Assembly: GCA_965284405.1 (NCBI GenBank)
Contig: OZ260081.1
Location: 2,209,732-2,273,731, forward strand
Length of the DNA: 64,000 bases
Direction of reading: 5' to 3'
Source of the DNA: Balneola sp.
GTDB taxonomy: Bacteria > Bacteroidota > Rhodothermia > Balneolales > Balneolaceae
Below the pieces are notes generated by a model that saw only the letters and a list, made by a program, of their open reading frames with translations, was not told where the DNA came from and did no database searches. A program made the translations under genes and the position numbers. Position 1 is the first letter of the stretch, and each line of letters starts with the position of its first letter. Below are positions 28,171-48,607 of the stretch, piece after piece.

Positions 28171-28173
28171 TCT

Positions 28174-29096: not shown

Positions 29097-29181
29097 GGAG
29101 AGTTGGCAGAGTGGTCGAATGCGGCGGTCTTGAAAACCGTTGTGCCGCAAGGTACCGGGGGTTCGAATCCCTCACTCTCCG
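29097..29181 (+). tRNA. tRNA-Ser (anticodon TGA), CCA not encoded
   Basis: Acceptor stem GGAGAGT/ACTCTCC + G discriminator, anticodon loop CTTGAAA, long variable arm, T-loop GGTTCGAATCC. Confidence 0.97.
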
Positions 29182-29189
29182 CATTTTTT

Positions 29190-29261: not shown

Positions 29262-30641
29262 ATGAAAAAAATCTTTTCTATTTTCTTCTTTTTCATTTTA
29301 GTATCGGTGCAGGCAGTTTATGCTCAGGATACTTTGGAAATTTCACTCCGCGATTTTATTGATCTTGGTTTAAGCAATTCAGGACAAATAAAATATGACA
29401 AAACAAGTGTCGATCTAGCGGAGAACAGAGTAAGCTCAGCTAAGGATCAGCGATTTTTACCTAGTCTTAATTTCAGATCCGAGCATGCACTAGTTCCAGG
29501 TGTATCATCACCCGGTAATTTTCCGGAAGAAGAGATCTATTTGGATCCAAACGCAAAAAATGACTGGGACAAAGTTGGCGTATTCAATCGCCTTAGAATT
29601 ACGGGAGTTCAGCCGGTATTTACATGGGGCTCAATAAATAAAGCAATATCAGCAGCTGAAGAAGCAGTGAAGGCAACTGAGTTCGAATTTCAGGCCAAGA
29701 AAGAAGATATGGAGGTGCGTTTATTTGAGTTGTACTATAGCTATGTACTCGCTTTGGAAATTGAACGCTTGCTTAAGGATGCAGAAGATAAGATCAATCA
29801 GATTGAAAATTCTTTAGATGATGCTCAGGAAGAAGGAGATGATATTGATGAGACTGATGTCTATAAATTCAAAGTTTTTAAAGCACAATTTGGTATTCAA
29901 AAAGCTGAAGTAGATGAAAGTTTAGTTTTCGTAAAACAAACCTGGGAGTATATTCTGAGGAATGAAAACGGTACTATATATATACCTTCAATAAGATATT
30001 TAGATCCTTTAGCCGTAAAGCTTTCCGGATTAGATCACTACCAAAACAGTGCATTTTTAAATAGAAACGAATTACGTGGTATATCAACAGGAAAAGAAGC
30101 TTTGATGAAATATATTGACTATCAAAAAGCTAGTAATTTACCCGGCCTTTATTTAGGATTTACCACCACATTTGCATCAACACCAATTCGTCCAAGACAG
30201 CCAAATCCCTTTATAAGTACACCTGAGAATACTTTTAATACTGCTTTCGGGATTACAATAAGACAAAATTTAAATTTCTTTCAAGCCAAAACTCAACTAG
30301 ACAGAGTAAAGATAGAATTAAGAAAGATGGATTACTTATCCGAAGCTGCAAAAGATGGTATCCTCCTGGAAGTAAACCAAGCATACCAGAAAGCAGCTGT
30401 AGCTGAAGTTAAGGTTGAGAGAACAGATGAAGCTTTGCTTACCACAAAACAATGGTTGCGAATGGAACAACAGGACTATGATTTTGGTATAGGAGAAGTT
30501 AAAGACCTTATTGACGCCATGAAAATGGAACTTGAATTAAGACTTAAAGAGAAAGAAAGTATATTTGAATTCAATACATCCATGGCCAAACTAAATAATG
30601 CAGCGGGAATTCCGTTAGAATTACTACAAAAGAATAATTAA
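29262..30641 (+). CDS. TolC family outer membrane efflux protein
   Basis: Signal peptide, two OEP helical repeats (ISLRDFIDLGL...; YQKASNLPGLYL...; Y..G....DLIDA). Confidence 0.85.
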   Translation: MKKIFSIFFFFILVSVQAVYAQDTLEISLRDFIDLGLSNSGQIKYDKTSVDLAENRVSSAKDQRFLPSLNFRSEHALVPGVSSPGNFPEEEIYLDPNAKNDWDKVGVFNRLRITGVQPVFTWGSINKAISAAEEAVKATEFEFQAKKEDMEVRLFELYYSYVLALEIERLLKDAEDKINQIENSLDDAQEEGDDIDETDVYKFKVFKAQFGIQKAEVDESLVFVKQTWEYILRNENGTIYIPSIRYLDPLAVKLSGLDHYQNSAFLNRNELRGISTGKEALMKYIDYQKASNLPGLYLGFTTTFASTPIRPRQPNPFISTPENTFNTAFGITIRQNLNFFQAKTQLDRVKIELRKMDYLSEAAKDGILLEVNQAYQKAAVAEVKVERTDEALLTTKQWLRMEQQDYDFGIGEVKDLIDAMKMELELRLKEKESIFEFNTSMAKLNNAAGIPLELLQKNN

Positions 30642-30649
30642 TAGATAGA

Positions 30650-31237
30650 ATGAAAAGAAGAATATTTCCAATGTTGTTGTTTGTTTTTGGACTAGTAACA
30701 ATACTTCAGGCACAAACACCAAAAGAAGAGATCAAAACATTATTAGAACAAAGAGATCAACAAGTGAAGACTTTGCTCGGCCCAAAAGGTTCTGAATATA
30801 GTGACGAACAAAGAGCTGAAATAAAAGATATCATTAACGGAGTTATTGATTTTGAATCTATGGCTAAATACGCTCTTGAAGATACTTATGATACTTTGAG
30901 TACTGAGATTCAAACTGAATTCGTTGAACTATTTGCTACAATAGTAAGAGATCAATCGTTAAATAAATTAGATATATATCGTGCAGAGGTTACCTATAAT
31001 TCTATTACAGTTGATGGAAGTGAGGCGATGGTAAAAACTTTTGCAGAGCTGGATGACATCAGAACACCTGTGGATTATACAATGGTAATGAAAGGGGATG
31101 AGTGGGTAATTACAGACCTTATTCTGGATGAGGTTTCTACGGCCGAATCTTATAATCGTCAGTTCCAGCGTATTATTAAAAGGAAGGGCTTTGAATCATT
31201 ATTAAGTACATTGAGAAAAAGAGCAGCCAGAAGTTAG
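30650..31237 (+). CDS. MlaC/ttg2D/HpnM-like periplasmic lipid-binding protein
   Basis: Signal peptide, IDFESMAKYALE, F.ELF, VDY...W.ITDLILDEVS...SYNRQF..II pattern of the MlaC family. Confidence 0.85.
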   Translation: MKRRIFPMLLFVFGLVTILQAQTPKEEIKTLLEQRDQQVKTLLGPKGSEYSDEQRAEIKDIINGVIDFESMAKYALEDTYDTLSTEIQTEFVELFATIVRDQSLNKLDIYRAEVTYNSITVDGSEAMVKTFAELDDIRTPVDYTMVMKGDEWVITDLILDEVSTAESYNRQFQRIIKRKGFESLLSTLRKRAARS

Positions 31238-32085
31238 TGGATACAAAAGCCTCTTTAATAGTCCGGTCATTTAACAGACTTCCTGCATTACTAGAGTTGC
31301 TTGACGTTTTAAGAACTCAGAAATACAAGAACTTTGAAATTATAATTGTTGAACAATCAACCAATTATGAGGGTAAAGATTGGGAGAAACTCAATGAGAT
31401 CGAAGCTGAAGATCATAGAATAAAGCTCCTAAAATATACACCACTCGGAGGGCCTAAAGCTCGAAATGAAGGGGTAAAAAATGCTACGGGTGAAATTTTA
31501 ATTTTTATTGATGATGACGATCTTCCTTTTTCAGATCAATGGGTTGCAGAGCATGTAGAAGCTTACAAAGACCCTATGCTAATAGGTTTTACCGGTAGAC
31601 ATGTACTAAACGATAAAACCGGAGATCCATATAAGGATTGGGTAAAACCCTTTTTTAAGAAAAAGTGTATGAGATATAGCTATTTAAAATTCCCATATAC
31701 ATATGCACAACTTAAAGTAAATATAAAGGGTGTTGAATGGTTACATGGTACTAATTCATCAGTGCGTAGAAAATGGGCAATCAAAGCCGGGCTTTGGGAC
31801 GAAGATATAAGACACCAGGATGAGCACTCTTTCGCTTTTAAACTAAATCGTATCTTAGATGAAAATCATCATATTGATTTCAGACAAAAACCCGAGTTAA
31901 TCAGGAGGACCGATATAAGCGGTGGAATGAATAAAAGAAACTTTAATATGATCGATGAATTTAAGAATCAACTTAATTTCTGCTTTAAAGTAATTTATAG
32001 ATATCATAAGCATCTGATAATCCTATTCCCATTTCATATTGCATCGGTGGTCATAAAGACGGTTAAGTTTAAAATAATGAATTAG
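31237..32085 (+). CDS. Glycosyltransferase family 2
   Basis: LIVRSFNR...EIIIVEQ, ARNEGVKNATGEILIFIDDDD (DxD). Confidence 0.9.
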   Translation: MDTKASLIVRSFNRLPALLELLDVLRTQKYKNFEIIIVEQSTNYEGKDWEKLNEIEAEDHRIKLLKYTPLGGPKARNEGVKNATGEILIFIDDDDLPFSDQWVAEHVEAYKDPMLIGFTGRHVLNDKTGDPYKDWVKPFFKKKCMRYSYLKFPYTYAQLKVNIKGVEWLHGTNSSVRRKWAIKAGLWDEDIRHQDEHSFAFKLNRILDENHHIDFRQKPELIRRTDISGGMNKRNFNMIDEFKNQLNFCFKVIYRYHKHLIILFPFHIASVVIKTVKFKIMN

Positions 32086-32138
32086 AAATGCTGATAATTT
32101 ATAGTAATTCTTACATAGGTTAATCAGAATACTATTCC

Positions 32139-33275
32139 ATGAAAATAGCATTTGTCTCTGATCAAATATATCCAAGAACATCCGCTGATGCAGAGCAGAT
32201 TGTGTCTTCCTTATCTGCACTAGGTAAGACTTCTGAAGTTACACTTATTAGTTTTTGTTACAGTTATTCAAAGAAAGCCGATAAAACTGATATAGAAAGT
32301 TACTTTGGGAAAGAATGTACTTTCGAGTTAAGGTTTGTATCAACTTTATTTAGAAATATCAGAAGTTTTGAAAAAGTGTATTTCGCGCTAAAATCAGTCT
32401 TTCTCTTTGGGACAAAAGATTTCGACGTATTCTATACTAGAAATATCCCTGTTTTAATTGCATTTATGCTATTTACAAAGAAGCGTTTGGTTTTCGAATC
32501 TTACAGACCATGGCCTGATAGAAATTTCCAATCCAGATTATTATTCAAGAAGCTTTCTAAAAACCAGAGATTACTTGGTATCATAACACATTCAGATTTT
32601 GCAAAGCAGAGTTTTCTTGATGCAGGATTTGGTAATGAAGATCTATTAGTTGCTCACAATGCATTTGATATTGATGAGTACAACCCTGATACAGAAGAGG
32701 AAATAAGAAAGGAGCTACAGATACCTCTGAATAAGTTATTAGTTACTTATTCAGGACGAATTTCAGCAAAAAAAGGATTAGACAGGTTTATAAGATTAGC
32801 GGAAAGGAATCCTGAGGTACAGTTTCTATTGGTAGGATCAGAGAAGAGAGGTTCTATTGAGAAGGCTGCAGAAGAGTTGGAAAATGTAATGGTATTAGGT
32901 TGGTTAAAGAAGGACTATGTATTTTCTTTGTTGAAGGCATCGGATATTCTGTATATACCACCAACTTTAATTGCAAGAGATAAAGTAGGGAATACGGTAC
33001 TCCCGCTTAAGACATTTATTTATAAAGCTTCAGGAACTTCAATTTTTGCTCCTAACTCAGAAGATGTATCTGAAGTATTATCTCATAAGAAAACAGCTTA
33101 TTTAGTTAAGCCGGATGATTGGGAAGAAGAAGAAAAAGGATTCAGAGAATTAATTAGCGACAAGCAATTACGAATTTTGCTTGGGAAAAACGCTAAGGAA
33201 GAAATGCTAAAGAATACCTGGGAAAACAGAGCTAATGAGATTCTGAACTTTATAAAAAGATCTATCTCAGCTTAG
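32139..33275 (+). CDS. Glycosyltransferase family 4
   Basis: GT-B fold, VTYSGRISAKKG and PLKTFIYKASG variant of the ExxxxxxxE motif. Confidence 0.85.
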   Translation: MKIAFVSDQIYPRTSADAEQIVSSLSALGKTSEVTLISFCYSYSKKADKTDIESYFGKECTFELRFVSTLFRNIRSFEKVYFALKSVFLFGTKDFDVFYTRNIPVLIAFMLFTKKRLVFESYRPWPDRNFQSRLLFKKLSKNQRLLGIITHSDFAKQSFLDAGFGNEDLLVAHNAFDIDEYNPDTEEEIRKELQIPLNKLLVTYSGRISAKKGLDRFIRLAERNPEVQFLLVGSEKRGSIEKAAEELENVMVLGWLKKDYVFSLLKASDILYIPPTLIARDKVGNTVLPLKTFIYKASGTSIFAPNSEDVSEVLSHKKTAYLVKPDDWEEEEKGFRELISDKQLRILLGKNAKEEMLKNTWENRANEILNFIKRSISA

Positions 33276-34743
33276 TTCTTAACCGGTTTATCTTTTCGAG
33301 TCCTAAGATCCCACCAACAATTAAGATTATACCAATCGTTTGAACAAACGGATTTTTTATAAACTCGAAGCTGTCATAATTGTTCAGATAGCTGAATAGT
33401 AAAAAAGAAGTAGCTGCAAAGCCGGCTAAATGGGCTCTGAATACTTCTTTAAAATACATTTTAGCTTTAGCTACAAATCTAGCTTCTGCCATTTCAAAGC
33501 AAATGAGTATAAACATTGCCATTGCTGAAGCTGAAGCGGCTCCGATTATTCCAAATTCCGGTATCAAAAGTAAGTTCAATACAATGTTAGAAGAAGCTAC
33601 GATTACGCTGTTCATCAGGTTGAGCTTTGAATGTCCTGTCATAGCAACAATATTTCCTGCCAAGCTAAATGAACAATATAAGTAGGGAATAGGCAGTAGA
33701 TAGAACATAAAAGATGAATCTCCTCCATATTCGGGATGTATAAGGATCAATAAATGATCTTTAAAAACAGTGATTAAAAGAATTATTGGGAATGCAATAG
33801 TTGTGATCCAGGATGCGGTTTTTGAAAAATGATGGGAAAGCTCTTCAAATTTATTTTCTTTGTGTAGCCTAACTATAAATGGGTTAAAGGCTGTTGAAAA
33901 GATCATTTTAACCGAGCGGATCTCTCTGATAAGCATTGAACCCGCTCCATAAAATCCAACAACTGCCGGACCAAATCCAAATGCAGGCAGCATTAAAATA
34001 TCAATTCCGGTAATAAATCGGTTTAACGTCATATTTAAGCTCTGAGGAATTGCAAATTCTACGAGCTCGGAATTGATTTTAAAATTTCTGAATGTTAAAA
34101 GAAGCTTCTTCCAACTAAATAGTTTGCTATAAATAACCAGAGAGATCAAAAACAGTAAAGCCTGACAAGAGAAATAAGCCAATGCCATTCCTGTAACCGT
34201 TGGTGATACGAACCAGAAGAGAATTGAAAATATTAGTAATGCAATAGGACGTATCCATCCATTATTGATAGCATCGTATTTCATAATCTTTAATCCTTGA
34301 GTTGATGCTAAAACAATACGTTCAAATGCCATCAAAGGAATTGACAAGATCATAATTTGGAATATGGTGATCAAAGAGGAAGAGAATTCATCTTGATATA
34401 TCATTTCCAAAAGTTGGACACCAAATAGAATTGAAAATGTGAATACAAGTAGAGAAAGCCCTACGCTCCATAAGAATGCATTTGAAAGCGCAGTATATAA
34501 TTCTTGTTGATCATTTTTGCTATCCGAAAATCGGGAAACAAAAATCAATGCTCCATCTTTAAATCCGGAAGTCAAAAATGCGATGATTATTTCAATGGCT
34601 ATATTTGCAGTTATATAGATTCCGAAAACCTCAGGACCATAAAGCCGATTAACAATTATAAGGAAAGCAGGAGCAGCCATTTTTCCCACCACTCCGAAAA
34701 AGTTAACAAAAGCCCCTTTTTTAAGTTCTTTAGATACGCTCAT
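33262..34743 (-). CDS. Wzx/MOP-family oligosaccharide flippase
   Basis: About 12-14 TM helices, YGPEVFGIY, NIVLNLLLIPEFGIIGAA C-terminal motif. Confidence 0.88.
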   Translation of the reverse strand: MSVSKELKKGAFVNFFGVVGKMAAPAFLIIVNRLYGPEVFGIYITANIAIEIIIAFLTSGFKDGALIFVSRFSDSKNDQQELYTALSNAFLWSVGLSLLVFTFSILFGVQLLEMIYQDEFSSSLITIFQIMILSIPLMAFERIVLASTQGLKIMKYDAINNGWIRPIALLIFSILFWFVSPTVTGMALAYFSCQALLFLISLVIYSKLFSWKKLLLTFRNFKINSELVEFAIPQSLNMTLNRFITGIDILMLPAFGFGPAVVGFYGAGSMLIREIRSVKMIFSTAFNPFIVRLHKENKFEELSHHFSKTASWITTIAFPIILLITVFKDHLLILIHPEYGGDSSFMFYLLPIPYLYCSFSLAGNIVAMTGHSKLNLMNSVIVASSNIVLNLLLIPEFGIIGAASASAMAMFILICFEMAEARFVAKAKMYFKEVFRAHLAGFAATSFLLFSYLNNYDSFEFIKNPFVQTIGIILIVGGILGLEKINRLRTKLR

Positions 34744-35872
34744 GCTCTCTTATGGCTTCTTCGTATAATTCTTCTAGCTTCTTTACCTGATTAAAAAGGT
34801 CGTATTCTTTTTCCATTTTCAAACGTGAAGCTTTACCAAATTTCTTAATCAACTCCGGTTGTTGAATGAATAATTTCATTTTCTGAACAAGCTCAGGGAT
34901 ATTCCTTTCAGGAATTAAAAAACCTGTTTTCCCATTATCTATGATCTCATGAATTCCCCCGTGCCAGGTTCCAATGGCGGGTACACCTACGCTACCTGCT
35001 TCCTTAATTACTATTAATCCGCTTTCTCTGTCTTGATCAAAAGCTACGACGCTTGGTGCAACCAGTACATCCGAAGATTTTAAAACCTCTGAAACTTCTT
35101 CAGGTGTTAGAATTCCTTTAAATGTCACATGTGTTGAGAGATCGTTTTCCTCAACAAATTTCAGAGCTTTGGTTTTTAAATCTCCTGACCCAATAAAAGT
35201 TAAAGAAGCATTCATCCCATCTTTAATAATTTTATTAAAGGCTCTTAAAACATATAAATGAGCTTTTTTAGGGGTGAACCTGCCTATCATTACAAAATTG
35301 ACCTGTTCCGCAGGGTTAGGTTCCTGATAGCCAAATTTTGAGAGATCGATCCCAAGATGATAAACTTTCACTTTAGCCGGATCTGCCCCTAGCTCAATTA
35401 ACAATGCTCGTAATTCTTCGCTTGCTGCTAAAAGTAAAGTTGCATGGTCAAAAATCTGTTTGTGTTTTAAGTAATAACGCCATCTTTCAGATTTGTACTT
35501 CTGTAAACCCATTAATGAAGCAACATCAACTCCATGAAAAGTGACTACGAAGGGTATCTTGAATTTCTTTACATAGGGCAAAGCATAAACGGCTCCGAAT
35601 CCAAAATGAGCATGAACCAGATCAAAGTTACCATTACCTATAATTTTTTTAAATGAAGGCCAATAAGCTATGTTTTGGTATATGATCTCAAATAATTTTC
35701 CTTTGGGTTTATGAAACTGATCGTATGGAAATCGGTCTTCATTCTGCCGGTCTTTGCAAAATACAGTTATATCATAATTTTCTGAATGGGCTCTTATTTC
35801 ATCGTAAAGAAAAGTTTGAGAATAAGGCAGAAACGACGTAGAAAATAAAGCGATCTTCCTCGTTGGAGGCAT
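34730..35872 (-). CDS. Glycosyltransferase family 4 (WcaL-like)
   Basis: HAHFG, TFHGVD, GRFTPKK, ESGLIVIKEAG motifs. Confidence 0.9.
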   Translation of the reverse strand: MPPTRKIALFSTSFLPYSQTFLYDEIRAHSENYDITVFCKDRQNEDRFPYDQFHKPKGKLFEIIYQNIAYWPSFKKIIGNGNFDLVHAHFGFGAVYALPYVKKFKIPFVVTFHGVDVASLMGLQKYKSERWRYYLKHKQIFDHATLLLAASEELRALLIELGADPAKVKVYHLGIDLSKFGYQEPNPAEQVNFVMIGRFTPKKAHLYVLRAFNKIIKDGMNASLTFIGSGDLKTKALKFVEENDLSTHVTFKGILTPEEVSEVLKSSDVLVAPSVVAFDQDRESGLIVIKEAGSVGVPAIGTWHGGIHEIIDNGKTGFLIPERNIPELVQKMKLFIQQPELIKKFGKASRLKMEKEYDLFNQVKKLEELYEEAIREHERI

Positions 35873-36006
35873 GCTTGGATATATAATTCGAAATTGCTAG
35901 AAGATAATAAATTGATACTCTAAAACGATTTATATTTTAACCGTTAAATGATGTATATTTTCGACCGATTAAGCCAAATTAAATTAATTTTTTTGAACGT
36001 CTTTTA

Positions 36007-37176
36007 ATGAAAATTCTCATTTACGCTACTACTTTTGGGGCAGATCTGTTAAGCCTTACACGATACCTTTCCGAAAAGGAGAATGTCGAAATTAAGGTTT
36101 TAATGAAGGAAGTTGAGAAATTTAAAAGTGAAGGTATATATAAGTTATGGGATCTGGATCTAGATATATTTGAGTTTAATAAGATCAATATTATAAAAGG
36201 GATCAGTGGTTTCGATCCCGATGTGACTATTCTGGATAATAATATTCCGCTTAGAGCAGTAAGTCCAAAGGCATTGATTCTGTGGCATGGATACGGATGG
36301 AAAGGGCCGAATGATGAAGAAGAGTTCAAATGGATTCATAGAAACATCCGACTTAGCTGGGGAGATATGAAAATCCCTAACAACAATATTAAGTGGCTTT
36401 GTTTTGGTCCGGTTGATTTTGAACACAGAACTAAGATAAGTGGTTTCCATCCTGAAAACTGTGTAACTCTGGGGTCAGCAAGCCATGACTACCTCAGAGA
36501 AGAAGTGTCTAAAGAGAAGTTACAGCCATACTATCCATTCGATGTTATAAACAGAAAAACGGTGTTGATTGCACCTACATGGCATTATGGAGAAGTATTT
36601 TCACATTGGGGAGATGACGATACTCTTTTTAACAGAGCTTTAAAGGAATTACTAGAAAAAAATGTAAATGTAATTCTGAGACTTCATGATTCATATCGTT
36701 TTGACCATCACTATGTAGAATTTCTTCAAAATTTAGAAGTAAAGTATCCTAATGTGTTGTTGAAATTCAAAGATTCAAATCCTGACAATTTCTTAGACCT
36801 ACAGGTTGCAGATGTTATGGTAACTAATTTCAGCAGCATAGCGAATCTTTTTTACGCTACTAAAAGACCAACGGTTCATATTTATCCGGTAAAGAGCGAG
36901 CATGAATCTTTTATGTGGAGAAATAAAACCCTTTTGGGTATTCGTAAAAAAATGATTGACTCTGTTCGTTTTATCTGGAAATATCCGCCGGAAGATAATG
37001 GTGGTTTATTAGCCAGAAATTATGATGAAATGATGGAGCAGATATTCCAAGGGTTAGATGATCCTGATTGCTGCAAAGAGGCTTCTCAGAACTATTTAGA
37101 TAAACATATGCTAGGTGCAGATGGAAAGAACTGTGAGCGAATTTGGAATACCTTAACTGATCTTGTGAGTAACTAA
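36007..37176 (+). CDS. CDP-glycerol:glycerophosphotransferase (TagF/TagB, PF04464-like) family protein
   Basis: LWHGYGWK (TagF WHG), LIAPTWH (YAPTW/FR), RLHD (second catalytic His), ADVMVTNFSSI (SDxLITDYSS). Confidence 0.85.
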   Translation: MKILIYATTFGADLLSLTRYLSEKENVEIKVLMKEVEKFKSEGIYKLWDLDLDIFEFNKINIIKGISGFDPDVTILDNNIPLRAVSPKALILWHGYGWKGPNDEEEFKWIHRNIRLSWGDMKIPNNNIKWLCFGPVDFEHRTKISGFHPENCVTLGSASHDYLREEVSKEKLQPYYPFDVINRKTVLIAPTWHYGEVFSHWGDDDTLFNRALKELLEKNVNVILRLHDSYRFDHHYVEFLQNLEVKYPNVLLKFKDSNPDNFLDLQVADVMVTNFSSIANLFYATKRPTVHIYPVKSEHESFMWRNKTLLGIRKKMIDSVRFIWKYPPEDNGGLLARNYDEMMEQIFQGLDDPDCCKEASQNYLDKHMLGADGKNCERIWNTLTDLVSN

Positions 37177-37180
37177 AGTA

Positions 37181-38650: not shown

Positions 38651-38692
38651 AAAATAACTTCTTGTTATAAAGTTTAATAAGCATTCAGTGTA

Positions 38693-40501: not shown

Positions 40502-40697
40502 TTATATAAAAATTTTATCGTTCAATGAATGTGGAAATATAGGGAATTATCAGTCAAGAGAATCTTTAATATTGATACAGATCCTGCAACAGGAGAGACA
40601 GCTAAGATTATTTTATTTATAAACAGGAAACTTTTAACATCACTTTGTTTAATTGCGTATCTTTCTGAGATTAGATTTTTAAACAAAAAAAGAAATA

Positions 40698-42020
40698 ATG
40701 ACGAAGCCTGATATAGCTCCACACAAAGGAAAACTTTTAGTACTTACACCGGGAATGGGAGCAGTTGCAACTACCTTTATGGCAGGAGTTGCTTCAGCAA
40801 GAAAGAATTTAAGTAAACCATTTGGTTCTCTAACTCAATTACAAACAATCAGGCTTGGTTCACGTTCTGAGAATAGAAACCCGTTAATAAAAGATTTTTT
40901 GGATCTCGCCGGATTAGATGATATTGTTTTTGGCGGGTGGGATGTAAAAGCAGACAATGCTTTTGAAGCAGCTAAAAACGCTGATGTTTTAAAGCCTCAG
41001 GATCTGGATCCGTTAAAGGATGAACTTGAAAAAGTTACTCCAATGAAAGCGGCGTTTAACCAACGTTATGTTAAGAAACTTGACGGACCGAATGTTAAAG
41101 AGCAGACCAATAAAATGGAACTTGCCGAAGCATTAAGAGAGGATATCAGGAATAAACTTAAAGAAACCGGAGCAGACAGAGCAGTAATGGTTTGGTGTGG
41201 TTCAACTGAAGTTCATTTGCATCATTCAGATTGTCATAGATCAATTGAAGCTTTCGAAGAGGGTTTAAGAAATAACGATGATTCAATAGCACCATCTCAG
41301 TTGTATGCTTATGCAGCGATCAAGGAAGGAGTGCCATACGCAAACGGAGCTCCAAATTTATCAGCCGACTTTCCTGCACTTGAGCAATTAGCAGAGCAGG
41401 AAGGTGTACCTATTGCAGGGAAAGATTTTAAAACAGGCCAAACGTTGATGAAAACCATTCTGGCACCGGGTTTTAAAACTCGTATGCTGGGAATCAGAGG
41501 TTGGTTCTCTACAAATATACTTGGTAACAGAGATGGTGAGGTTTTGGATGATCCAGAAAGCTTCAAGTCTAAAGAAGTAAGTAAAACAGGAGTACTGGAC
41601 TCTATTCTTCAGCCTGAAATATATAAAGATCTATATGGTGATCTTTATCACAAAGTAAGAATCAACTATTACCCTCCAAGAGGAGATGAAAAAGAAGGAT
41701 GGGACAATATTGATATCTTTGGCTGGATGGGATATAACATGCAGATCAAAGTAGATTTTCTATGTAGAGATTCAATTCTAGCAGCACCTATCGTTTTGGA
41801 TCTGGCTTTATTCTTAGATTTCGCCAAAAGAGCAGGCAAAGGTGGAATTCAGGAGTGGTTGTCTTTCTACTTCAAGAGCCCTCAGGTTAAAGCAGGTCAT
41901 ATTCCAGAGCACGATATATTTATTCAGCACTTCAGGTTAAAGAATACACTTCGTGTTCTAGCGGGAGAAAAACCCGTTACACACCTCTCCGAAAATTTTG
42001 AAGAAGAGGCGCTAAGCTAA
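40698..42020 (+). CDS. ino1: myo-inositol-1(3)-phosphate synthase
   Basis: GMGAVATT, FGGWD, DFKTGQT, NILGNRDG, SKEVSK, DSILAAP motifs. Confidence 0.96.
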   Translation: MTKPDIAPHKGKLLVLTPGMGAVATTFMAGVASARKNLSKPFGSLTQLQTIRLGSRSENRNPLIKDFLDLAGLDDIVFGGWDVKADNAFEAAKNADVLKPQDLDPLKDELEKVTPMKAAFNQRYVKKLDGPNVKEQTNKMELAEALREDIRNKLKETGADRAVMVWCGSTEVHLHHSDCHRSIEAFEEGLRNNDDSIAPSQLYAYAAIKEGVPYANGAPNLSADFPALEQLAEQEGVPIAGKDFKTGQTLMKTILAPGFKTRMLGIRGWFSTNILGNRDGEVLDDPESFKSKEVSKTGVLDSILQPEIYKDLYGDLYHKVRINYYPPRGDEKEGWDNIDIFGWMGYNMQIKVDFLCRDSILAAPIVLDLALFLDFAKRAGKGGIQEWLSFYFKSPQVKAGHIPEHDIFIQHFRLKNTLRVLAGEKPVTHLSENFEEEALS

Positions 42021-42743
42021 TTGATGTCTGAAAAAGTAGGTCTTATTTTAGCTGCCGGATATGGTTCCAGACTTGAAGGGGTAAGTGCAGTAACTGAGTT
42101 TAAACCACTAACTCCGGTAGCCGGAAAGCCTCTTATATTTAGAACGATTTCCAGTTTAGAGGTCGCAGGTTGTTCAAAGATTGTAATTGTTCTGGGACAT
42201 GGACACAAAGAAATCGAAAAGGCAATTTCAGAATCCTACAAAGGTAATACGCCATTGATATTCGTTTTCAATGAGCGTTTTAACTTGAGCAATGGAGTAT
42301 CTGTATTGTCAGCTTCTGATCATCTGGGTGATTTATTCATTATGACTATGGCCGATCATGTGCTTGGCGATAAATTGATGGAAATTGCAAAGGATTATAA
42401 GCCGAAAGAAGGTGCAGCTGCTCTTCTGGTCGATTATAAGATCGATTCCATTTTTGATATGGACGATGCAACAAAAGTTCTTTCAGAAAACGATAAAATT
42501 ATATCTATCGGAAAAGAGATCGAGAACTTTAACTGTATTGATACAGGTGTATTTGTGTGTACAAGAGGAATTCTGGATTCTCTGAATCGTCATTTTGAGT
42601 CAAACGGTGATACTTCGATTTCAGAAGGAGTACAGGACCTGGCCGAAGAAGGAAACATGTTTACAGTAGATGTAGAAGAAGGATTTTGGCAGGACGTTGA
42701 TACGCCTGAAATGTTAGAGTACGTGGAAAAAATTCTTTCTTAA
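42021..42743 (+). CDS. CTP:inositol-1-phosphate cytidylyltransferase (IPCT)-like nucleotidyltransferase
   Basis: LAAGYGSRL..KPL. SNGVSVL, FIMTMADHV, DDATKV, IGKEIENFNCIDTGVFV and WQDVDT parallel the Archaeoglobus IPCT motifs as recalled. Directly follows ino1. Confidence 0.8.
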   Translation: MMSEKVGLILAAGYGSRLEGVSAVTEFKPLTPVAGKPLIFRTISSLEVAGCSKIVIVLGHGHKEIEKAISESYKGNTPLIFVFNERFNLSNGVSVLSASDHLGDLFIMTMADHVLGDKLMEIAKDYKPKEGAAALLVDYKIDSIFDMDDATKVLSENDKIISIGKEIENFNCIDTGVFVCTRGILDSLNRHFESNGDTSISEGVQDLAEEGNMFTVDVEEGFWQDVDTPEMLEYVEKILS

Positions 42744-42773
42744 GTTGAATTAAGATTCGCTTAGCTTATCTAT

Positions 42774-43820
42774 TTATCTATCAACGGCTAGGAAATTGAA
42801 GAAGGCAGGCTCATTATTTACCAATGCTGTTCCATTCATCTCTATAACCTCTCCTCCGACATATCTTTTTGCAAATATTCTTTTTAATCCGCCGAGTTCA
42901 TCCAGAATAGAATAGGAGCTGAAGTGTTCTTCTATTTTGATATCAAGAGCTTCAGTTTGGTATGTTTTCACGGTAAACTGAGTATCCAGATAAACTCCAT
43001 GAGTTTTTTTAGTTTGATCAGGAGTAATTTTTGAAGGCGTAAGCATTTGTTCAACTCCATTGGTGTATTTAATACCGTATCCGATTGGAAAAAGCAGGCC
43101 ATTTTTTTCCACAGTTACAAAATGCATGAACATACCATTGTAAGAGTCGCCTGTTTTTAAGCGGTAACTTTTTTCCATAAAATCAGTTGCAAGGCTATTC
43201 TGAAAAGTATGGTCCATTACAGCCGTTCCTTTAGCTTCTACTCTTTCACCATTTATAGAGATATAACCTTTAACCTTTGCATGAGGAATGAGAAGTGACA
43301 AGCCAAATTGAGTGTCTTTGTACTTGTAAATACCATTACCCCAAATTTTTCCTTTAGCGATATCATAAAGAACAAGATTTAAATCATAAGCTACCCCATC
43401 TTTGGTTGTTTTGAAATTTAAAACATGTTCGTTTTCAAAACTGCCTTTTGCCCAATAGTTTCGTTCAGGGTGTAATATTATGGAGTTGCTATCTGCTTCA
43501 TTGATAAACTTGTCCATGGGATATTCTTTATTTGCAACATAGTTTTTCCCATTGGTCCAATGTACGCTAAGTTTACCTCCTGTGACTCTGTCTTTAAGTG
43601 AGCCAAAATCATTAATTGAAAATATGTACACAATCTGAACACCATTATCGAGGTTTATTTGATAGGTGTATAACTCACTGTAATACTTAGAAGGGATATT
43701 TTTGGCTAAAAAATCAGTTGGCTCAATATTACGAAAAGCACCTTCGGGTCTCTCAATTCTCTGGCCGTAGGTAGATAAAGTGACTAATGAAATGATGAAT
43801 AATAAAATAGAATTCTTCAA
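42774..43820 (-). CDS. Secreted hypothetical protein, possible AttH/CrtC/Svf1-like lipocalin fold
   Basis: Signal peptide, beta-rich. YSELYTY and GTAVMDHTF resemble the EWWY and G.xDH.W motifs of AttH-like proteins. Confidence 0.5.
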   Translation of the reverse strand: MKNSILLFIISLVTLSTYGQRIERPEGAFRNIEPTDFLAKNIPSKYYSELYTYQINLDNGVQIVYIFSINDFGSLKDRVTGGKLSVHWTNGKNYVANKEYPMDKFINEADSNSIILHPERNYWAKGSFENEHVLNFKTTKDGVAYDLNLVLYDIAKGKIWGNGIYKYKDTQFGLSLLIPHAKVKGYISINGERVEAKGTAVMDHTFQNSLATDFMEKSYRLKTGDSYNGMFMHFVTVEKNGLLFPIGYGIKYTNGVEQMLTPSKITPDQTKKTHGVYLDTQFTVKTYQTEALDIKIEEHFSSYSILDELGGLKRIFAKRYVGGEVIEMNGTALVNNEPAFFNFLAVDR

Positions 43821-44034
43821 GGTCAGAACTGTGTTAGTTAGTTTAGTGGAACTGTAGATGATGATTGCTTTACTCGTAATGCTTTAATCACTTTTTCGTA
43901 AATAAAGTTTCGGGATAAAAGCTTTTATAATATAACTTAGCAATTTAAGTGATAGTATGAATAAACATATTTTTTCTAAAGTTAATTCTTATACTTAAAT
44001 GTGATTGTCAACGATTTGTAATTAAGAAAGATCT

Positions 44035-45606
44035 ATGCATCGATACATAGTAAGGACTGCAGTAGTTTTATTTCTTTTTAGTTTTTTGTGTTCTGAATTA
44101 ATAGCACAAACATCCAGAATATTAGAACTCGAAAATGAAAAAGCTTATCAATTAATTGAGAGATTTGTCAAAAAGGGTAGATTTAATTCTATAAACCCGA
44201 CTAAGCTACCCTACACACATTTTGATATATATAAAGAGCTTCAAAAGCTGGATTACGATCGTTTGTCTAACATTGAAAAAGAATGGTACGATCAGCTTAA
44301 AGAAGAAATTCGCTACTCGGAAAAGCTCGAAGCCAAAGATTATGTTATTGAGCCTTATGTGATTTCAGGAAGTGTATTCAATAATTCCGAGATCAAAAAT
44401 AGCTACCGACCCACATCAGATTCCAAATATGTTTGGCCATTCACGGATCTGGGACTTTTCGCAGATTATAAAAACTTTACGATCAATACGAATATAAGAT
44501 TTGATCTGTATTATGAATTTGGCCCTTTTGAATTAGATCCGACAAACAGATTATATATGCGAAATGAAGATTCGTATGTAGGATATAGCTCAGAATATTT
44601 TCAGGGATACTTAGGCAGGTTTGAGAATAACTGGGGTATTTATGATCAGAAATCAACTTTTATGTCTGATAATGCTCCAACATTTGACCAGTTCAACTAT
44701 ACTATTGGCACCAGAAAATTTTCATTTACAACACTTCACGCTTTTTTAGATAACATTAGCGGGAATGATGAATTTGAAGGTAATACCATTAATGATCCAA
44801 TGTCTAAGAGGAGGTATTTAAGTGTAAAAAGAATAGACTGGAGAGTTTCAGATCATTTAGCATTAAGCATGAAAGAAGGGATCTTATATTCAGGTATGAA
44901 TGTAAATCCTGAGCCTAAATATATGATTCCAGGATTTTTATATTTTTTGCTGGAAGCGTCTAATCCCAGAGATCAGGTTGAAAACCTCTTTATAGGCGGG
45001 AATCTGTGGTTTAATAAGAGTGGGTTTTCCGTAAATCTTGATATGATGATTGACGATCTAATTGGCAACAGAAAGGAACGTGGGATCAGCGAAAAGAATA
45101 ACTTTAGTTTAATTGTGAATTCCAGTTATTCATTTCGGAACAGACCTATAGCTGTAAATTGGGATCTGGAATTCATTACTTATCAAACATATAATACAGA
45201 TCAGGCAGAGGGTAGATACCTTTATTTAGGCAAAGGAATTGCTACAGAATTCAATGATTATGTTTTCAATGAATTAAGTCTGGAATATTATGCTGATTTA
45301 AAGGTTAAAGGATTAACGATTCAACCTTATGTTGGTATATTGAAGCAAGGCGAACAAATTATCAATCAAACATTTCAAAGCAGTTATCCTAATGGCGATG
45401 AATTCGAGATCGTTTTAACTGGAACTGTAGAGTCAACTACAAGATTTGCTTTCAAAACTTATTACAGTCCTGTTAATTATTTTTATGCCAAATTAGATAT
45501 GGGATATAATATGGTTAATAACTTCAGAAATATAGAAGGGATGAAATCGAACAGGTTTGTAGGAATGTTCGAATTTGGCTTCAAGTTCAATTTTAAAAAC
45601 CTATGA
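44035..45606 (+). CDS. Capsule assembly Wzi-family outer membrane beta-barrel
   Basis: Signal peptide, N-terminal helical bundle (I.PTKLPYTH), GRFENNWG, NAPTFDQ and KRIDWR...KEGILYSG patterns; aromatic C-terminus. Confidence 0.65.
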   Translation: MHRYIVRTAVVLFLFSFLCSELIAQTSRILELENEKAYQLIERFVKKGRFNSINPTKLPYTHFDIYKELQKLDYDRLSNIEKEWYDQLKEEIRYSEKLEAKDYVIEPYVISGSVFNNSEIKNSYRPTSDSKYVWPFTDLGLFADYKNFTINTNIRFDLYYEFGPFELDPTNRLYMRNEDSYVGYSSEYFQGYLGRFENNWGIYDQKSTFMSDNAPTFDQFNYTIGTRKFSFTTLHAFLDNISGNDEFEGNTINDPMSKRRYLSVKRIDWRVSDHLALSMKEGILYSGMNVNPEPKYMIPGFLYFLLEASNPRDQVENLFIGGNLWFNKSGFSVNLDMMIDDLIGNRKERGISEKNNFSLIVNSSYSFRNRPIAVNWDLEFITYQTYNTDQAEGRYLYLGKGIATEFNDYVFNELSLEYYADLKVKGLTIQPYVGILKQGEQIINQTFQSSYPNGDEFEIVLTGTVESTTRFAFKTYYSPVNYFYAKLDMGYNMVNNFRNIEGMKSNRFVGMFEFGFKFNFKNL

Positions 45607-45704
45607 TATCATCTTGCTCTATGAACTTGTAATACAATTTCGATTCAATATTGAGCGATCTTTTCGGTAAATTCAATGCTTAAAGAAATTCCGGCTTTTA
45701 CTAA

Positions 45705-48212
45705 ATGAAAAAAATTCTAAGGCTGTTTCAGCCATTGTTAAAATTAAATATTAAACATCCATTTTTAGTTCTGGGTGTTTGCCTGTTATTAGCTGTAGTT
45801 GGCGGATATTACTCTATTCAGCTAAAGATAGACACAGACATTGCAAATCTGTTACCTAAGAACCACCCTAATGTATTGGCTCTTGAGAAGTTAAAGAATA
45901 CGGTTGGTGGTGAAACAGAAATGCAGGTGGCGATCAAATCACCTAGTTTTGAAGCAAATAAGAAGTTCGCTGAAGATCTGATCCCAAAAACTCTGGAACT
46001 ATTTTACCCGCGGTATAACGACAAATATTTCAAAAGAGCCGAGTTTCGAAAAGATACCGATATCATTAAGGATAATGCGCTTTATCTGGCCAGTGATGAA
46101 GAGTTGGAAGAGATCACAGATTGGCTTCAGGAAGAAATTGATAATGCCCGCGAAGAAGCAAATCCATTTTTCATCGATTTTGAAGAAGACGAGGAGGAAA
46201 CTTCTGACAACGAGGAGAACAAAGCAGATAGCTTTAAAGAAAGTTACGATGTGCTGGTTCCTTCTGAGTATCCGATAAATGAAGACAGTACTATAATGGT
46301 ATTGAAGTTCTTTCCAACCGGCTCTAAAAGTGATATCCGGTATCTAGAAGACATGTTCGTAAAGTATGATTCACTTCTTACCGCAATGAACCCGGGTTCT
46401 TATCATCCTGATATGGAAGTTCAGTTTGGAGGTCGGTTAAAAAGGCATCTTGAGGAACTTACATCAATCATGAGCGATGTTCTGGGAAGCTTTGCGACAG
46501 GTATTTCAAGTGTAGTGCTCCTTGTTATGATGTACTTCTTTATAAAGAAATATATTCACTATCGAAGAGGGAGAGATGAAGACCTGAATCACAGCATTTG
46601 GAGCCATGTAATCAGAATGCCGGTTCCGGTGTTGATCATTGGCTTACCTCTTATCATGAGTTTGGTATGGACTTTTGGGATAACTTATTTCTATCTGGGG
46701 ATGCTGAATACAATGACCTCGGTTTTGTTTGTTATCCTTTTTGGCTTGGGTATCGATTACGGTATTCATTATTACGCCAGATATATTGAACTTCGTTCAT
46801 CCGGACTTTCTGTTGAAGAAGCTATTCTTACAACCAATGATAAAACCGGAGAGGCAATTTTTGTAAGCGCATTTACAACGGCTTCTGCACTGTATGTATT
46901 GATGTTTGCGGATTTCAGAGGGTTCTCGGAATTCGGATTTATTTCAGGGACAGGAATTATGCTTGCACTTTTTGCAATGCTTTATGTGCTTCCTTCCTTG
47001 TTGGTAATCTTTGAGAAATTTAACTGGGTTTTATTTTCTAAAAAGGAGTCTACTTCCAATTCAATGGAAAATAAAAAATACCCATATGCAAGAACTACGG
47101 TTGTAGCAGGTTTAGTTCTTTCAGCAGTTGTAATAGGATTTAGCGGAACTCTCAGTTTCCAATACGATTTCGGAAAGCTGGAACCAACCTATCCTTCTTA
47201 TGAAAAATTCAGAGAAGTAGCCGGTCAGGTTGGAAGTTCAGATAAAAGAAATCCGGCTTACATCATTGCGGATTCTGACAGTGAAGTAGAAAATTTGGTT
47301 GAAGTGTTAAACCAAAAAATGCAAGCGGACACAAGTTCTCCAACCATATTAAGTATCGAAGCACTTCAGGATCGTTTTCCTGCCACAGAAGAAGAGGAAG
47401 AAGGAAAACTACAGAAAATTGCCCGAGTCAGGGAATTATTAGACAATACATTCATCAGAAATAAGGAAGATGAAGATCTGGATAAACTACGCAGAGCAGC
47501 TCAGACCAGAGAGCCGTTAACGATCGATCAGATTCCTCCGTACCTCAAGTCAAAATTTATAACCAAAGACGGAGAAGTAGGAAGATTCGTGATCATTTAT
47601 CCGTCGGTTGGACTTTCTGACGGAAAGAAATCCATAGCTTTTAAGGACGACATCGGATCAGTAACTCTGGACAATGGGAAAACTTATTATGCAGCCAGTA
47701 CATCTATAGTTGCAGCTTCCATGCTCGATCTAATGCGAACTGAAAGTCCGTATATGGTTGGAGCGACATTCATTATTATTTACCTGTTCATGATCTTTAC
47801 TTTCCGTTCGTTCAGATGGTCTGTTATCTCCATGTTACCTCTTGTAGTAGGTTTACTTTGGCTATTCGGAATTATGATGATATTCGATCTTCAATTTAAT
47901 TTTTATAATCTGGTGGTTCTCCCCGCCATTTTGGGAATTGGTGAAGACAGCGGAGTTCATCTGGCTCACAGATATCGGGATGAAGGTAAAAATTCCATGT
48001 GGGCAGTCCTTTCCAGTACAGGTCAACATATTTCGATGGGATCTATAACAACTATGCTTGGTTTTGCGGGACTTTTATTTACGAGTCATCCGGGATTGCA
48101 ATCATTGGGCGTAATGGCAGTGATCGGAATTGGAATGACATTATTGACTTCTTTAACTTTCTTGCCGGCTCTCATTCAATGGTTGGAAGATAAAGACTGG
48201 ATCAGATACTGA
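45705..48212 (+). CDS. MMPL/HpnN-type RND family lipid transporter
   Basis: Two RND halves (1+5 TM each) with GLGIDYGIH and GIGEDSGVH proton-relay motifs. Confidence 0.92.
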   Translation: MKKILRLFQPLLKLNIKHPFLVLGVCLLLAVVGGYYSIQLKIDTDIANLLPKNHPNVLALEKLKNTVGGETEMQVAIKSPSFEANKKFAEDLIPKTLELFYPRYNDKYFKRAEFRKDTDIIKDNALYLASDEELEEITDWLQEEIDNAREEANPFFIDFEEDEEETSDNEENKADSFKESYDVLVPSEYPINEDSTIMVLKFFPTGSKSDIRYLEDMFVKYDSLLTAMNPGSYHPDMEVQFGGRLKRHLEELTSIMSDVLGSFATGISSVVLLVMMYFFIKKYIHYRRGRDEDLNHSIWSHVIRMPVPVLIIGLPLIMSLVWTFGITYFYLGMLNTMTSVLFVILFGLGIDYGIHYYARYIELRSSGLSVEEAILTTNDKTGEAIFVSAFTTASALYVLMFADFRGFSEFGFISGTGIMLALFAMLYVLPSLLVIFEKFNWVLFSKKESTSNSMENKKYPYARTTVVAGLVLSAVVIGFSGTLSFQYDFGKLEPTYPSYEKFREVAGQVGSSDKRNPAYIIADSDSEVENLVEVLNQKMQADTSSPTILSIEALQDRFPATEEEEEGKLQKIARVRELLDNTFIRNKEDEDLDKLRRAAQTREPLTIDQIPPYLKSKFITKDGEVGRFVIIYPSVGLSDGKKSIAFKDDIGSVTLDNGKTYYAASTSIVAASMLDLMRTESPYMVGATFIIIYLFMIFTFRSFRWSVISMLPLVVGLLWLFGIMMIFDLQFNFYNLVVLPAILGIGEDSGVHLAHRYRDEGKNSMWAVLSSTGQHISMGSITTMLGFAGLLFTSHPGLQSLGVMAVIGIGMTLLTSLTFLPALIQWLEDKDWIRY

Positions 48213-48230
48213 TTTTGAGAATACTTTGAT

Positions 48231-48572
48231 ATGAAGATCGTCAAAATTAATACTGATGATATTCTTGATTGGAACTCATTTCATGAAGTCTTCTCGAGTA
48301 AGTTTGGATTCCCAAGTTTTTACGGTAGAAATATGGATGCGTGGATAGACTGTATGGAATCATTGGATTCTCCTGAAGATGGAATGACAACAATTCATGT
48401 TAAGCCCGGAGAAACTTTGATACTGGAATTGAATAATGTTACATCATTTGCCAAAAGAAATAAAGAGATTTATGAAGCTATTGTCGAGTGTTCTGCCTTT
48501 GTTAATCACAGAAGAATCGAAGTTGGAGAGCCTCCGGTTCTTACTTTATCTTTTCATAAAAAAAATGTCTAA
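48231..48572 (+). CDS. Barstar family protein
   Basis: I.DWNSFH..F...FGFPSFYGRNMDAWIDCM motif. Confidence 0.85.
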   Translation: MKIVKINTDDILDWNSFHEVFSSKFGFPSFYGRNMDAWIDCMESLDSPEDGMTTIHVKPGETLILELNNVTSFAKRNKEIYEAIVECSAFVNHRRIEVGEPPVLTLSFHKKNV

Positions 48573-48607
48573 AAATCTACTTTGAGTTTTAAATTAGTTT
48601 CAGCAAA

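Follow-up and report, generated by a model that had tools for sequence, protein, structure and literature searches.

To our knowledge, the transfer of bulky glycolipids other than lipopolysaccharide (LPS) from the inner to the outer membrane of diderm bacteria is largely unknown outside the mycobacteria and the hopanoid producers. Mycobacteria export lipids through MmpL transporters that work with periplasmic lipid chaperones; examples are MmpL3 with trehalose monomycolate (TMM), MmpL8 with sulfolipid-1, and the chaperones LprG and LppX. For hopanoids, a relay from HpnN through HpnM to either the MlaA-like HpnS or the lipocalin HpnT was proposed in a preprint from synteny and AlphaFold 3 models (PMC12324291). 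The present report concerns a locus at positions 29262-48212 of a 64,000-nucleotide stretch of DNA from Balneola sp. (assembly GCA_965284405.1, contig OZ260081.1, positions 2,209,732 to 2,273,731; hereafter, the window). An original prediction, made from the sequence of the window, had placed tolC and mlaC genes at the head of this locus and wzi and mmpL genes at its tail, around genes for glycan and inositol metabolism, and each of these genes was found where it had been placed. As read from the sequences of the locus and its relatives, the TolC-family outer-membrane factor (OEP), the MlaC/HpnM-like protein and the HpnN-like MMPL transporter probably, though far from surely, constitute a conserved, chromosomally fixed export bracket around an interchangeable biosynthetic cassette.

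Relatives of the locus were gathered in two scans, the one of GTDB (one genome per species) with an alignment of the AttH-like lipocalin of the cassette as query, and the other of the JGI metagenomes with an MMPL alignment. The former returned 29 loci, 27 of which belong to Balneolaceae, and the latter 80 loci with MMPL identities of 35-100%; MlaC alignments from a 50%-representative search diverged too much to serve in the pattern scan of the metagenomes, and the MMPL alignment was used instead. Both sets were annotated by BLAST and by hidden Markov models (HMMs) built from the family, and single loci are cited below by number. A locus was regarded as complete when both ends had been captured, giving 39 including the window (the 38 others come from Balneolaceae genomes and metagenomes); incomplete loci with an MMPL at least 55% identical to that of the window were truncated where the 10 kb flank or the contig ended. 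In every one of the 39, OEP followed by MlaC on one side and MMPL on the other enclose the biosynthetic genes, and no locus with an MMPL at least 55% identical to that of the window departs from the order OEP, MlaC, cargo, MMPL. Given this recurrence in 38 other complete loci, the arrangement is evidently not a product of chance. OEP and MlaC genes are separated by -4 to 12 bp in 17 of 18 loci, and the next gene after MlaC is a same-strand cargo gene at a distance of 9-158 bp in 19 of 20; this gene usually encodes an enzyme, and in L017, L019 and L021 a Wzi-family barrel. The interior order is shuffled between genera (e.g., L016 and L032 compared with L013), and the genes still lie within the bracket. 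MMPL is 62-99% identical across the Balneolaceae, homologs at 72-97% identity carrying the names Balneola, Gracilimonas or Balneolaceae, and Balneola sp. EhC07 (L004), which has the same cassette as the window, shares approximately 95% DNA identity with it over 32780-48247. Protein searches with MMPL, AttH-like and MlaC sequences gave only Balneolaceae among the named best matches listed. The tRNA-Ser(UGA) gene at the junction of atpG and the locus is present in 12/12 relatives covering that site and is therefore an old landmark rather than the site of a recent island insertion.

Outside this family, neither OEP nor MlaC genes lie within 10 kb of the MMPL homologs of 42-50% identity, which have SMC-like, M48 peptidase and MaoC genes upstream. 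Several of these homologs are nevertheless found beside two GT4 glycosyltransferase genes (e.g., L076, L079, L083-L085, L087-L092 and L107), often together with GT2b, U163, U299 and DUF3047 genes and sometimes a methyltransferase gene; others have no such neighbors (e.g., L075, L077, L078, L094, L095 and L111), and in L104 an MlaC gene stands directly upstream of a 35%-identical MMPL homolog. The association of MMPL with glycosyltransferases thus appears to be older than the bracket of the Balneolaceae, and this adjacency argues that the substrate of the pump is the product of those transferases. As a separate observation, the multi-pass membrane protein U299, the small membrane protein U163 and the secreted DUF3047 protein accompany MMPL even in distant relatives (L001 7713-9952; L084 15874-19085; L059 6248-7656). 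Apart from DUF3047 itself, the three families received no assignment from Pfam or NCBIfam; they may be ancestral partners of the pump.

Pfam and NCBIfam searches of open reading frames (ORFs) gave the following features of the locus and its upstream junction:

29097..29182, plus strand: tRNA-Ser(UGA), by Rfam and ARAGORN, between atpG and the locus
29190-29212: terminator-like hairpin 3' of the tRNA-Ser(UGA) gene
29262..30641, plus strand: TolC-family outer-membrane factor (OEP), 459 aa (PF02321, 90 bits, two repeats)
30650..31237, plus strand: MlaC/HpnM-like periplasmic lipid-binding protein, 195 aa (PF05494, 91 bits)
31237..32085, plus strand: GT2 glycosyltransferase with a GTG start (PF00535)
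32139..33275, plus strand: GT4-family (Glycos_transf_1) glycosyltransferase (PF00534)
33262..34743, minus strand: MOP-superfamily flippase 1, MOP1 (Polysacc_synt/MatE; PF01943, 44 bits, and PF01554)
34730..35872, minus strand: GT4 glycosyltransferase (PF00534, PF13439)
36007..37176, plus strand: TagF-like CDP-alcohol phosphotransferase (Glyphos_transf), 389 aa (PF04464, 39.9 bits against a cutoff of 22.1)
37181..38650, minus strand: MOP/Wzx-type flippase 2, MOP2 (PF13440, 206 bits; NF007773 MOP flippase, 207 bits)
38693..40501, minus strand: AsnB-like ATP-dependent synthetase/amidotransferase (weak TIGR01536 match, residues 77-311)
40698..42020, plus strand: myo-inositol-1-phosphate synthase, MIPS (PF07994, 310 bits; PF01658)
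42021..42743, plus strand: inositol-1-phosphate cytidylyltransferase (IPCT)-like nucleotidyltransferase (best NCBIfam match NF041135, the IPCT half of IPCT/DIPPS, E 3e-37)
42774..43820, minus strand: AttH/CrtC-like double lipocalin, secreted, 348 aa (AlphaFold model and Foldseek)
44035..45606, plus strand: Wzi-family outer-membrane protein, highly divergent (PF14052, 31.6 bits against a cutoff of 30.1)
45705..48212, plus strand: HpnN-like MMPL/HAE3 RND transporter (PF03176, 142 bits; TIGR03480 HpnN, 286 bits)

The inventory of the original prediction was correct for the genes that it listed, but it had overlooked the two MOP flippases and the TagF-like and AsnB-like genes. With 14 genes in 29262-48212, the intergenic gaps of 99-215 bp leave no room for others to have been missed. 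The overlap it had noted between the GT2 gene and the mlaC stop codon amounts to 1 nt, the TAG stop and the GTG start having one base in common (TAGTG), and this GTG start is credible because the GT2 domain begins at residue 6. The absence that it had reported of a periplasmic adaptor (membrane fusion protein, MFP), of Wza and Wzc and of an ABC exporter was likewise confirmed, as no HlyD/MFP, Wza, Wzc or ABC-exporter domain was detected among the scanned ORFs of the window (at least 100-120 aa). The locus is bordered upstream by the atpBFHAG genes, the tRNA-Ser(UGA) gene and the hairpin, and downstream by barstar and tatD-like genes; the ATP synthase operon (24131-29064) ends at atpG, the genes for the beta and epsilon subunits are not downstream, and the envelope locus is found there instead. 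The GC content of the cassette (0.33-0.35) is below that of its flanks, the window having approximately 0.37, and a low-GC module of GT2, GT, MOP1 and GT4 genes (0.34-0.35) is common to the window, L004 and L037. Predicted sigma-70 promoter matches were fewer than the shuffled expectation and carried no information, and a search for RNA-seq runs containing the sequence returned none. No NCBIfam subfamily was assigned to any glycosyltransferase of the loci, nor to the U343, U299, U163 and DUF3047 families.

At least three types of cargo were recognized between the brackets. Type A, that of Balneola and the window, comprises a glycosyltransferase, the TagF-like protein, MOP2, the AsnB-like protein, MIPS, IPCT and the AttH-like protein, with or without Wzi, and a homolog of the GT4-family gene at 32139..33275 (53-58% identical) follows MlaC in the type A loci L005-L010. 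In type B (Gracilimonas), which comprises the TagF-like protein, MOP2, MIPS, IPCT and the AttH-like protein, two sulfotransferases replace the AsnB-like enzyme, and some loci of this type lack any recognizable glycosyltransferase. Type C, found in B. vulgaris (strain DSM 17893, L001) and many others, is composed of U343 (a DxD-motif protein), Wzi, GT4 and GT2 transferases, DUF3047 and the membrane proteins U299 and U163, sometimes with a sulfotransferase or a methyltransferase, and has no inositol genes. MOP1 is always paired with a GT4 gene upstream, the pair being present in L011, L020, L022, L035, L037, L038, L040, L042 and L043. The original prediction had suggested that synteny in other genomes be examined: the linkage of transport to glycan genes held in all 39 complete loci, but that to inositol genes did not, 22 of the 39 being without MIPS and IPCT, including relatives with approximately 91% identical MMPL DNA. 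The transport genes are therefore linked to a variable cassette rather than to inositol itself, and inositol would be one of several interchangeable head groups.

This replacement was seen most directly in L034, L063 and L097, the MMPL DNA of which is approximately 91% identical to that of the window (protein approximately 99% over the best segment), and yet they carry a type C cassette. In these three loci and in L074, the DNA is homologous to that of the window up to 31197-31204, near the 3' end of MlaC, and again from 45640-45644 on, approximately 60 nt before the start of MMPL, with unrelated genes between. Judged from the alignments, the breaks in L034, L063 and L097 have the pattern of a serotype-like cassette replacement between conserved flanks, and the population genetics of the locus resembles that of capsule and O-antigen loci. 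At equal MMPL identity, the identity of MlaC and OEP proved independent of a shared cassette type, with the exception of the closest pairs, where it was 94% for a shared type and 87% otherwise. A search for signs that MlaC or OEP had co-adapted with the type of cassette gave a signal only in these closest pairs; recombination hitch-hiking fits this exception better. The transport proteins should therefore be head-group-agnostic.

The inositol genes form a module of their own. MIPS, IPCT and TagF-like genes occur together in 33 loci, and the last is never found alone; all three are present in 17 of the 39 complete loci and none in the other 22, the four partial patterns all being those of truncated loci. 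MIPS is 78-99% identical across the family, and the IPCT-like ORF begins at the base after its stop codon (0-bp gap). The IPCT-like protein matches the N-terminal half of NF041135 with an E value of 3e-37, compared with 8e-20 for the next family, and its score falls under the cutoff for the full-length bifunctional protein because the DIPPS (DIPP synthase) half is absent. PF04464 was the only family matched by the TagF-like proteins, and by 11/11 aligned homologs. The motif of the CDP-alcohol phosphatidyltransferases, DX2DGX2AR...GX3DX3D, was absent from every frame of the window and of L001-L032, and Pfam detected no HAD hydrolase domain among the scanned ORFs of the locus. The co-occurrence of the three genes, coupled with this lack of a CDP-alcohol phosphatidyltransferase, suggests that the TagF-like protein may be a CDP-inositol:acceptor inositol-phosphotransferase. 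Members of the TagF family use CDP-polyols to attach polyol-phosphate to membrane-bound acceptors, and they do so in the capsule loci of Gram-negative bacteria as well (PMC5974469); no description of one that uses CDP-inositol was found in the literature searched. A MOP flippase accompanies 17/17 complete inositol-type loci, each of which has MOP2, compared with 8/22 of the inositol-free ones, a distribution consistent with a head group that is bulky and anionic and would have to be flipped. The AsnB-like protein has the PP-loop TGGLDS and no N-terminal Cys nucleophile.

Among the proteins of the bracket, the MMPL transporter has HpnN (5khn, E 4e-25) as its closest solved structure. Its residues D351, T782 and T783, invariant in 14 homologs, align with D344, T818 and T819 of HpnN (TM4 Asp and TM11 Thr-Thr), which Kumar et al. 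(2017) reportedly identified as the proton relay of that pump. The MlaC-like protein has a signal peptide, a single NCBIfam match (HpnM, 58 bits, under its cutoff) and weak matches in the PDB to 8dte and to Ttg2D (4fcz). The OEP has a signal peptide without a lipobox Cys and a weak match to TIGR01844, and no match was found for it among PDB sequences. The lipocalin-like gene of the original prediction could be confirmed by structure: the AlphaFold model of the 348-aa protein (predicted local distance difference test, pLDDT, 87.7; predicted template-modeling score, pTM, 0.86; 31-sequence alignment) matches the double-lipocalin fold of AttH (2ich), the top Foldseek match with an E value of 4e-12 and a TM score of 0.65-0.70, followed by kievitone hydratase and fungal Diels-Alderases. 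By sequence, the protein had no match in Pfam, NCBIfam or the PDB. It bears a signal peptide and is a candidate periplasmic lipid carrier, a function that its modeled fold and the signal peptides would fit. Homologs of the AttH-like protein outside the Balneolaceae (L030 and L031, 30% identity) have unrelated neighbors, namely enolase, Reg_prop and Omp85-like genes, and were not considered further. The AttH-like gene occurs in tandem duplicate in some Gracilimonas (L017 9878-12118; L018 9920-12112; L021 9911-12103), with a second copy approximately 29-30% identical to the protein of the window, and G. mengyeensis (L014) has two copies of MOP2 instead of this duplication. A metagenomic locus (L068 6150-8696) encodes an 848-aa protein of DUF285 repeats with a C-terminal sorting domain of the type 9 secretion system (T9SS) between IPCT and the AttH-like gene.

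The Wzi-like protein is less well defined, with the copy of the window matching PF14052 marginally, the family as a whole doing so in 9/9 aligned homologs (best 1.5e-20), and members being 15-67% identical to one another. Its AlphaFold model from a single sequence (pLDDT 31) had an unusable fold, and its alignment found neither Wzi nor any other match among PDB sequences. The original prediction had counted the lipocalin and Wzi as parts of the bracket; both are present in the window, but with occurrences in 24/39 and 22/39 complete loci, respectively, they are accessory and not core components.

Taken together, a lipid-linked head group flipped by MOP, extracted by MMPL and carried to the outer membrane by MlaC/AttH is the model to which we give somewhat more credence than not. 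By homology, MIPS would convert glucose-6-phosphate (G6P) to inositol-phosphate and IPCT would convert this to CDP-inositol. The GT2 and GT4-family transferases would assemble a small glycan on a lipid of the membrane, the TagF-like enzyme would add inositol-phosphate to the membrane-bound acceptor, and the AsnB-like enzyme, or the sulfotransferases in its stead in other genera, would modify the head group. The MOP flippases, in keeping with their family, would then translocate the lipid-linked head group into the periplasmic leaflet. By analogy to HpnN and HpnM, the proton-driven MMPL pump would extract the lipid from the inner membrane, and the MlaC-like protein, the AttH-like protein or both would accept it from the pump and shuttle it across the periplasm. 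In the weakest step, the TolC-family protein, with or without the Wzi-family barrel, would receive, insert or retain the lipid at the outer membrane. As cassettes of the inositol-phosphate, sulfated and plain glycosyl kinds are all found in one and the same bracket, the transporters would recognize a common element, presumably the lipid anchor. A dedicated role in lipid export and its linkage to the cassettes are well supported by this comparison of genomes; that the bracket proteins transport the product, we infer. The dedicated trans-envelope route of the original prediction thus retains its linkage to glycan genes, but not its independence from Wzx, given the two MOP flippases in the locus.

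Several points weigh against this model. The loci are not independent lineages, several being near-identical, and as the atpG and tRNA-Ser neighbors are equally conserved, part of the synteny must be ascribed to vertical inheritance. The locus contains no gene for an acyltransferase, an initiating transferase or lipid synthesis, and none for initiation or for synthesis of the anchor is present in any relative either. The match of the TagF-like protein to PF04464 is partial (profile positions 161-291 of 367), and a search of PDB sequences with the profile of its family matched no solved TagF or TarL. The independence of MlaC and OEP from the cassette type fits functional independence equally as well as recognition of an anchor. 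Finally, no mechanism is known to us by which a TolC-family channel could be coupled to an MlaC-like shuttle or an HpnN-type pump when an MFP is missing.

The chief rival, which we consider unlikely, holds that the bracket serves the general trafficking or homeostasis of outer-membrane (phospho)lipids, with the cassettes being passengers of a recombination hot spot that depend on the MOP flippase and on machinery encoded elsewhere. MMPL is as conserved as the gamma subunit of ATP synthase (62-83% compared with 61-73% between genera) and tracks the identity of the genus and not the cassette type, the bracket accompanies every type of cassette at a fixed position beside atpG and tRNA-Ser, and members of the MlaC family usually carry phospholipids, all as would be expected of such a housekeeping function. 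However, OEP and MlaC are apparently co-transcribed with cargo genes in 19/20 loci, the adjacency of MMPL to glycosyltransferases persists in distant relatives devoid of the bracket, and no MlaD/E/F partner is nearby; moreover, a hot spot alone would leave unexplained why the biosynthetic genes lie strictly inside 39/39 brackets.

That the product might instead be an undecaprenyl-linked glycan (an O-antigen-like glycan, an exopolysaccharide or a protein O-glycan) is rather improbable. Its export would depend on Wzx, the initiating transferase, polymerase and ligase would be encoded elsewhere, and MMPL, MlaC and OEP would not be exporters. Consistent with this notion, MOP2 matches Wzx-type flippases (the WzxC-like NF007773, TuaB and the Wzx of O-glycosylation), the glycosyltransferases resemble those of colanic acid and exopolysaccharide (EPS), albeit with low scores, Wzi-family proteins are associated with capsules, and cassettes are switched at the level of strains like those of O-antigen and capsule loci. 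But neither a phosphoglycosyltransferase nor Wzy, Wzz/Wzc, Wza or a ligase was detected in any of approximately 110 loci, 14 complete loci have no MOP flippase, and the cassettes lacking a recognizable glycosyltransferase (L013, L028, L016 and L032) are ill suited to a repeat-unit polymer. Nor is a capsule, which the original prediction had mentioned as what Wzi binds, indicated, as Wzy, a chain-length regulator and an initiating phosphoglycosyltransferase are absent from every locus. It is very improbable indeed that MIPS and IPCT produce compatible solutes, such as osmolytes like di-myo-inositol-phosphate, and are unrelated to the envelope genes around them. The best match of IPCT is admittedly to the IPCT/DIPPS family of archaea and Thermotoga, and the Balneolaceae are marine or halophilic; against this, neither a DIPP synthase nor the CDP-alcohol phosphatidyltransferase motif is present in the window or in L001-L032, the MIPS-IPCT pair within the bracket is always accompanied by both the TagF-like gene and a MOP flippase, and close relatives from the same habitat do without the pair.

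Returning to the model of a bracketed glycolipid exporter, its parts belong to known families, while the combination, the modularity of the cassettes and the implied CDP-inositol chemistry of TagF are undescribed in the literature searched, where no account of a cluster of MMPL, MlaC and OEP was found. More tentatively, and with more doubt than confidence, it may be proposed that the Balneolaceae use a new, MFP-less, envelope-spanning pathway (MOP, HpnN-like RND, MlaC/AttH-like and TolC-family proteins, with or without Wzi) for hypervariable surface glycolipids, with CDP-inositol used by a TagF-family enzyme in the inositol cassettes. If true, this pathway would be the glycolipid counterpart of the capsule serotype loci, CDP-inositol would be a new donor for the TagF family, and the bacterial routes to envelope lipids that contain inositol would number three; the inositol-envelope chemistry of bacteria would be extended from the Actinobacteria and gut Bacteroidetes to the marine Balneolaceae. 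The locus offers a compact and naturally modular test case for the transfer of glycolipids to the outer membrane, with one set of pump, shuttle and channel serving at least three head-group cassettes (phospho-inositol with glycosyl and amide; phospho-inositol with sulfate; and inositol-free glycosyl). It makes testable the action of an MlaC fold with RND pumps, so far proposed only for HpnM, the role of a TolC-family protein without an MFP, and the use of CDP-inositol by a TagF-type enzyme.

Other features of the window were recorded in passing. An orphan barstar-family gene (PF01337; 48231-48572) lies directly after MMPL without an adjacent barnase gene and is an insertion/deletion polymorphism, the alignments of L033, L097 and L004 jumping from window position 48247 to 48584. 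A family of intergenic repeats occupies 51039-52225, 58266-58472 and 59771-60414, where there is no ORF of at least 120 aa; its 300-nt copies are 98% identical at a spacing of 744 nt, with units of 87-92 nt that contain the hairpin-forming GTCATTCCTGCGAAGGCAGGAATC. These look like elements of the miniature inverted-repeat transposable element (MITE) or repetitive extragenic palindromic (REP) type, and no Rfam match was found for them. On the minus strand are an AAA_15/AAA_21/DUF2813 ATPase of the OLD/Gabija-like defense type (55425-57251), a stand-alone PIN-domain protein (16785-17201) and a T9SS plug-domain protein (PF17116; 7347-8654), the last of which confirms a Bacteroidota-like T9SS in the organism of the window.

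Compared with described systems, the locus shares with the Mla pathway (MlaA-MlaC-MlaFEDB) the MlaC-fold carrier (PF05494), but the 64-kb window encodes no MlaD/E/F/B or MlaA, and the carrier has an RND pump for its partner at the inner membrane and a TolC-family protein for its neighbor at the outer membrane. It differs from tripartite RND efflux in that its pump is of the MMPL/HAE3 type and not HAE1/HME (no PF00873 match), and in that no HlyD was found in the scanned ORFs of the window or in the loci scanned with Pfam (L001-L003, L015, L023, L030, L031, L059, L066, L068, L084 and L087). With the group 1 capsule of E. coli it has in common a Wzx-type flippase, present here in two copies, and a Wzi-family barrel, and with the kps (group 2) loci the principle that conserved export genes (regions 1 and 3) flank a variable cassette (region 2) swapped between close relatives; unlike either, it has no Wzy, Wza, Wzc, KpsMT/DE or initiating transferase, Wzi is optional and the export genes are RND, MlaC and OEP. 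As their defining parts were tested for and are absent, it is not an Mla, tripartite efflux or group 1 capsule system.

For its biosynthetic part, the closest parallels lie with the TagF-like polymerases, where a Glyphos_transf protein is also paired with a cytidylyltransferase that makes a CDP-alcohol in a surface-polymer locus of Gram-negative bacteria (PMC5974469); the linked donor here, however, would be CDP-inositol rather than CDP-glycerol or CDP-ribitol, and the protein is short and single-domain (389 aa). The inositol-lipid clusters of Bacteroides and Prevotella likewise combine, in their alternative (B. vulgatus-type) form, MIPS with an NTP-transferase for which synthesis of CDP-inositol is predicted, but the present locus has TagF-like, flippase and exporter genes in place of a CDP-alcohol phosphatidyltransferase and a HAD hydrolase, and lacking both of the latter, it belongs to neither the B. 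thetaiotaomicron nor the B. vulgatus type (Heaver et al., PMC9246714). The ceramide diphosphoglycerate pathway of Caulobacter works on a similar principle, its IPCT-fold cytidylyltransferase CpgD providing the CDP-activated donor for the phospho-head group of a membrane lipid; in that case, the lipid is a sphingolipid, CDP-glycerate serves as the donor, and linkage to RND, MlaC or OEP genes is not reported (PMC12275187).

For transport, the mycobacterial MmpL systems are distantly homologous (E 1e-9 to 1e-7 to MmpL4/5/3), and they differ from the locus, whose host has a true diderm envelope, with MOP flippases and no polyketide or acyl-chain genes. They resemble it in the placement of the pump gene beside enzymes for glycolipid head groups, sulfotransferases included (Gracilimonas-type), and in the soluble lipid-binding partners. 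The locus is not an equivalog member of HpnN/HpnM (5khn, 6wu0), because its scores are far under the cutoffs (MMPL, 286 against 752 bits for TIGR03480 and 156 against 1100 for NF052374; MlaC-like, 58 against 160 bits for HpnM) and hopanoid genes (shc, hpn) are absent from the scanned ORFs of the 64-kb window and labeled in no locus. In place of the MlaA-like HpnS, the genes linked to its pump encode glycosyltransferases, flippases and a TolC-family protein, and its lipocalin is of the two-domain AttH type and not DUF2147. Nevertheless, both have an MMPL/HAE3 RND pump without an MFP, with D351/T782/T783 aligned, linked MlaC-family and lipocalin-type proteins, and a proposed direction from the inner to the outer membrane. 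By analogy, then, while also resembling the mycobacterial MmpL systems, the locus of Balneola would work most like the HpnN/HpnM export of hopanoids.

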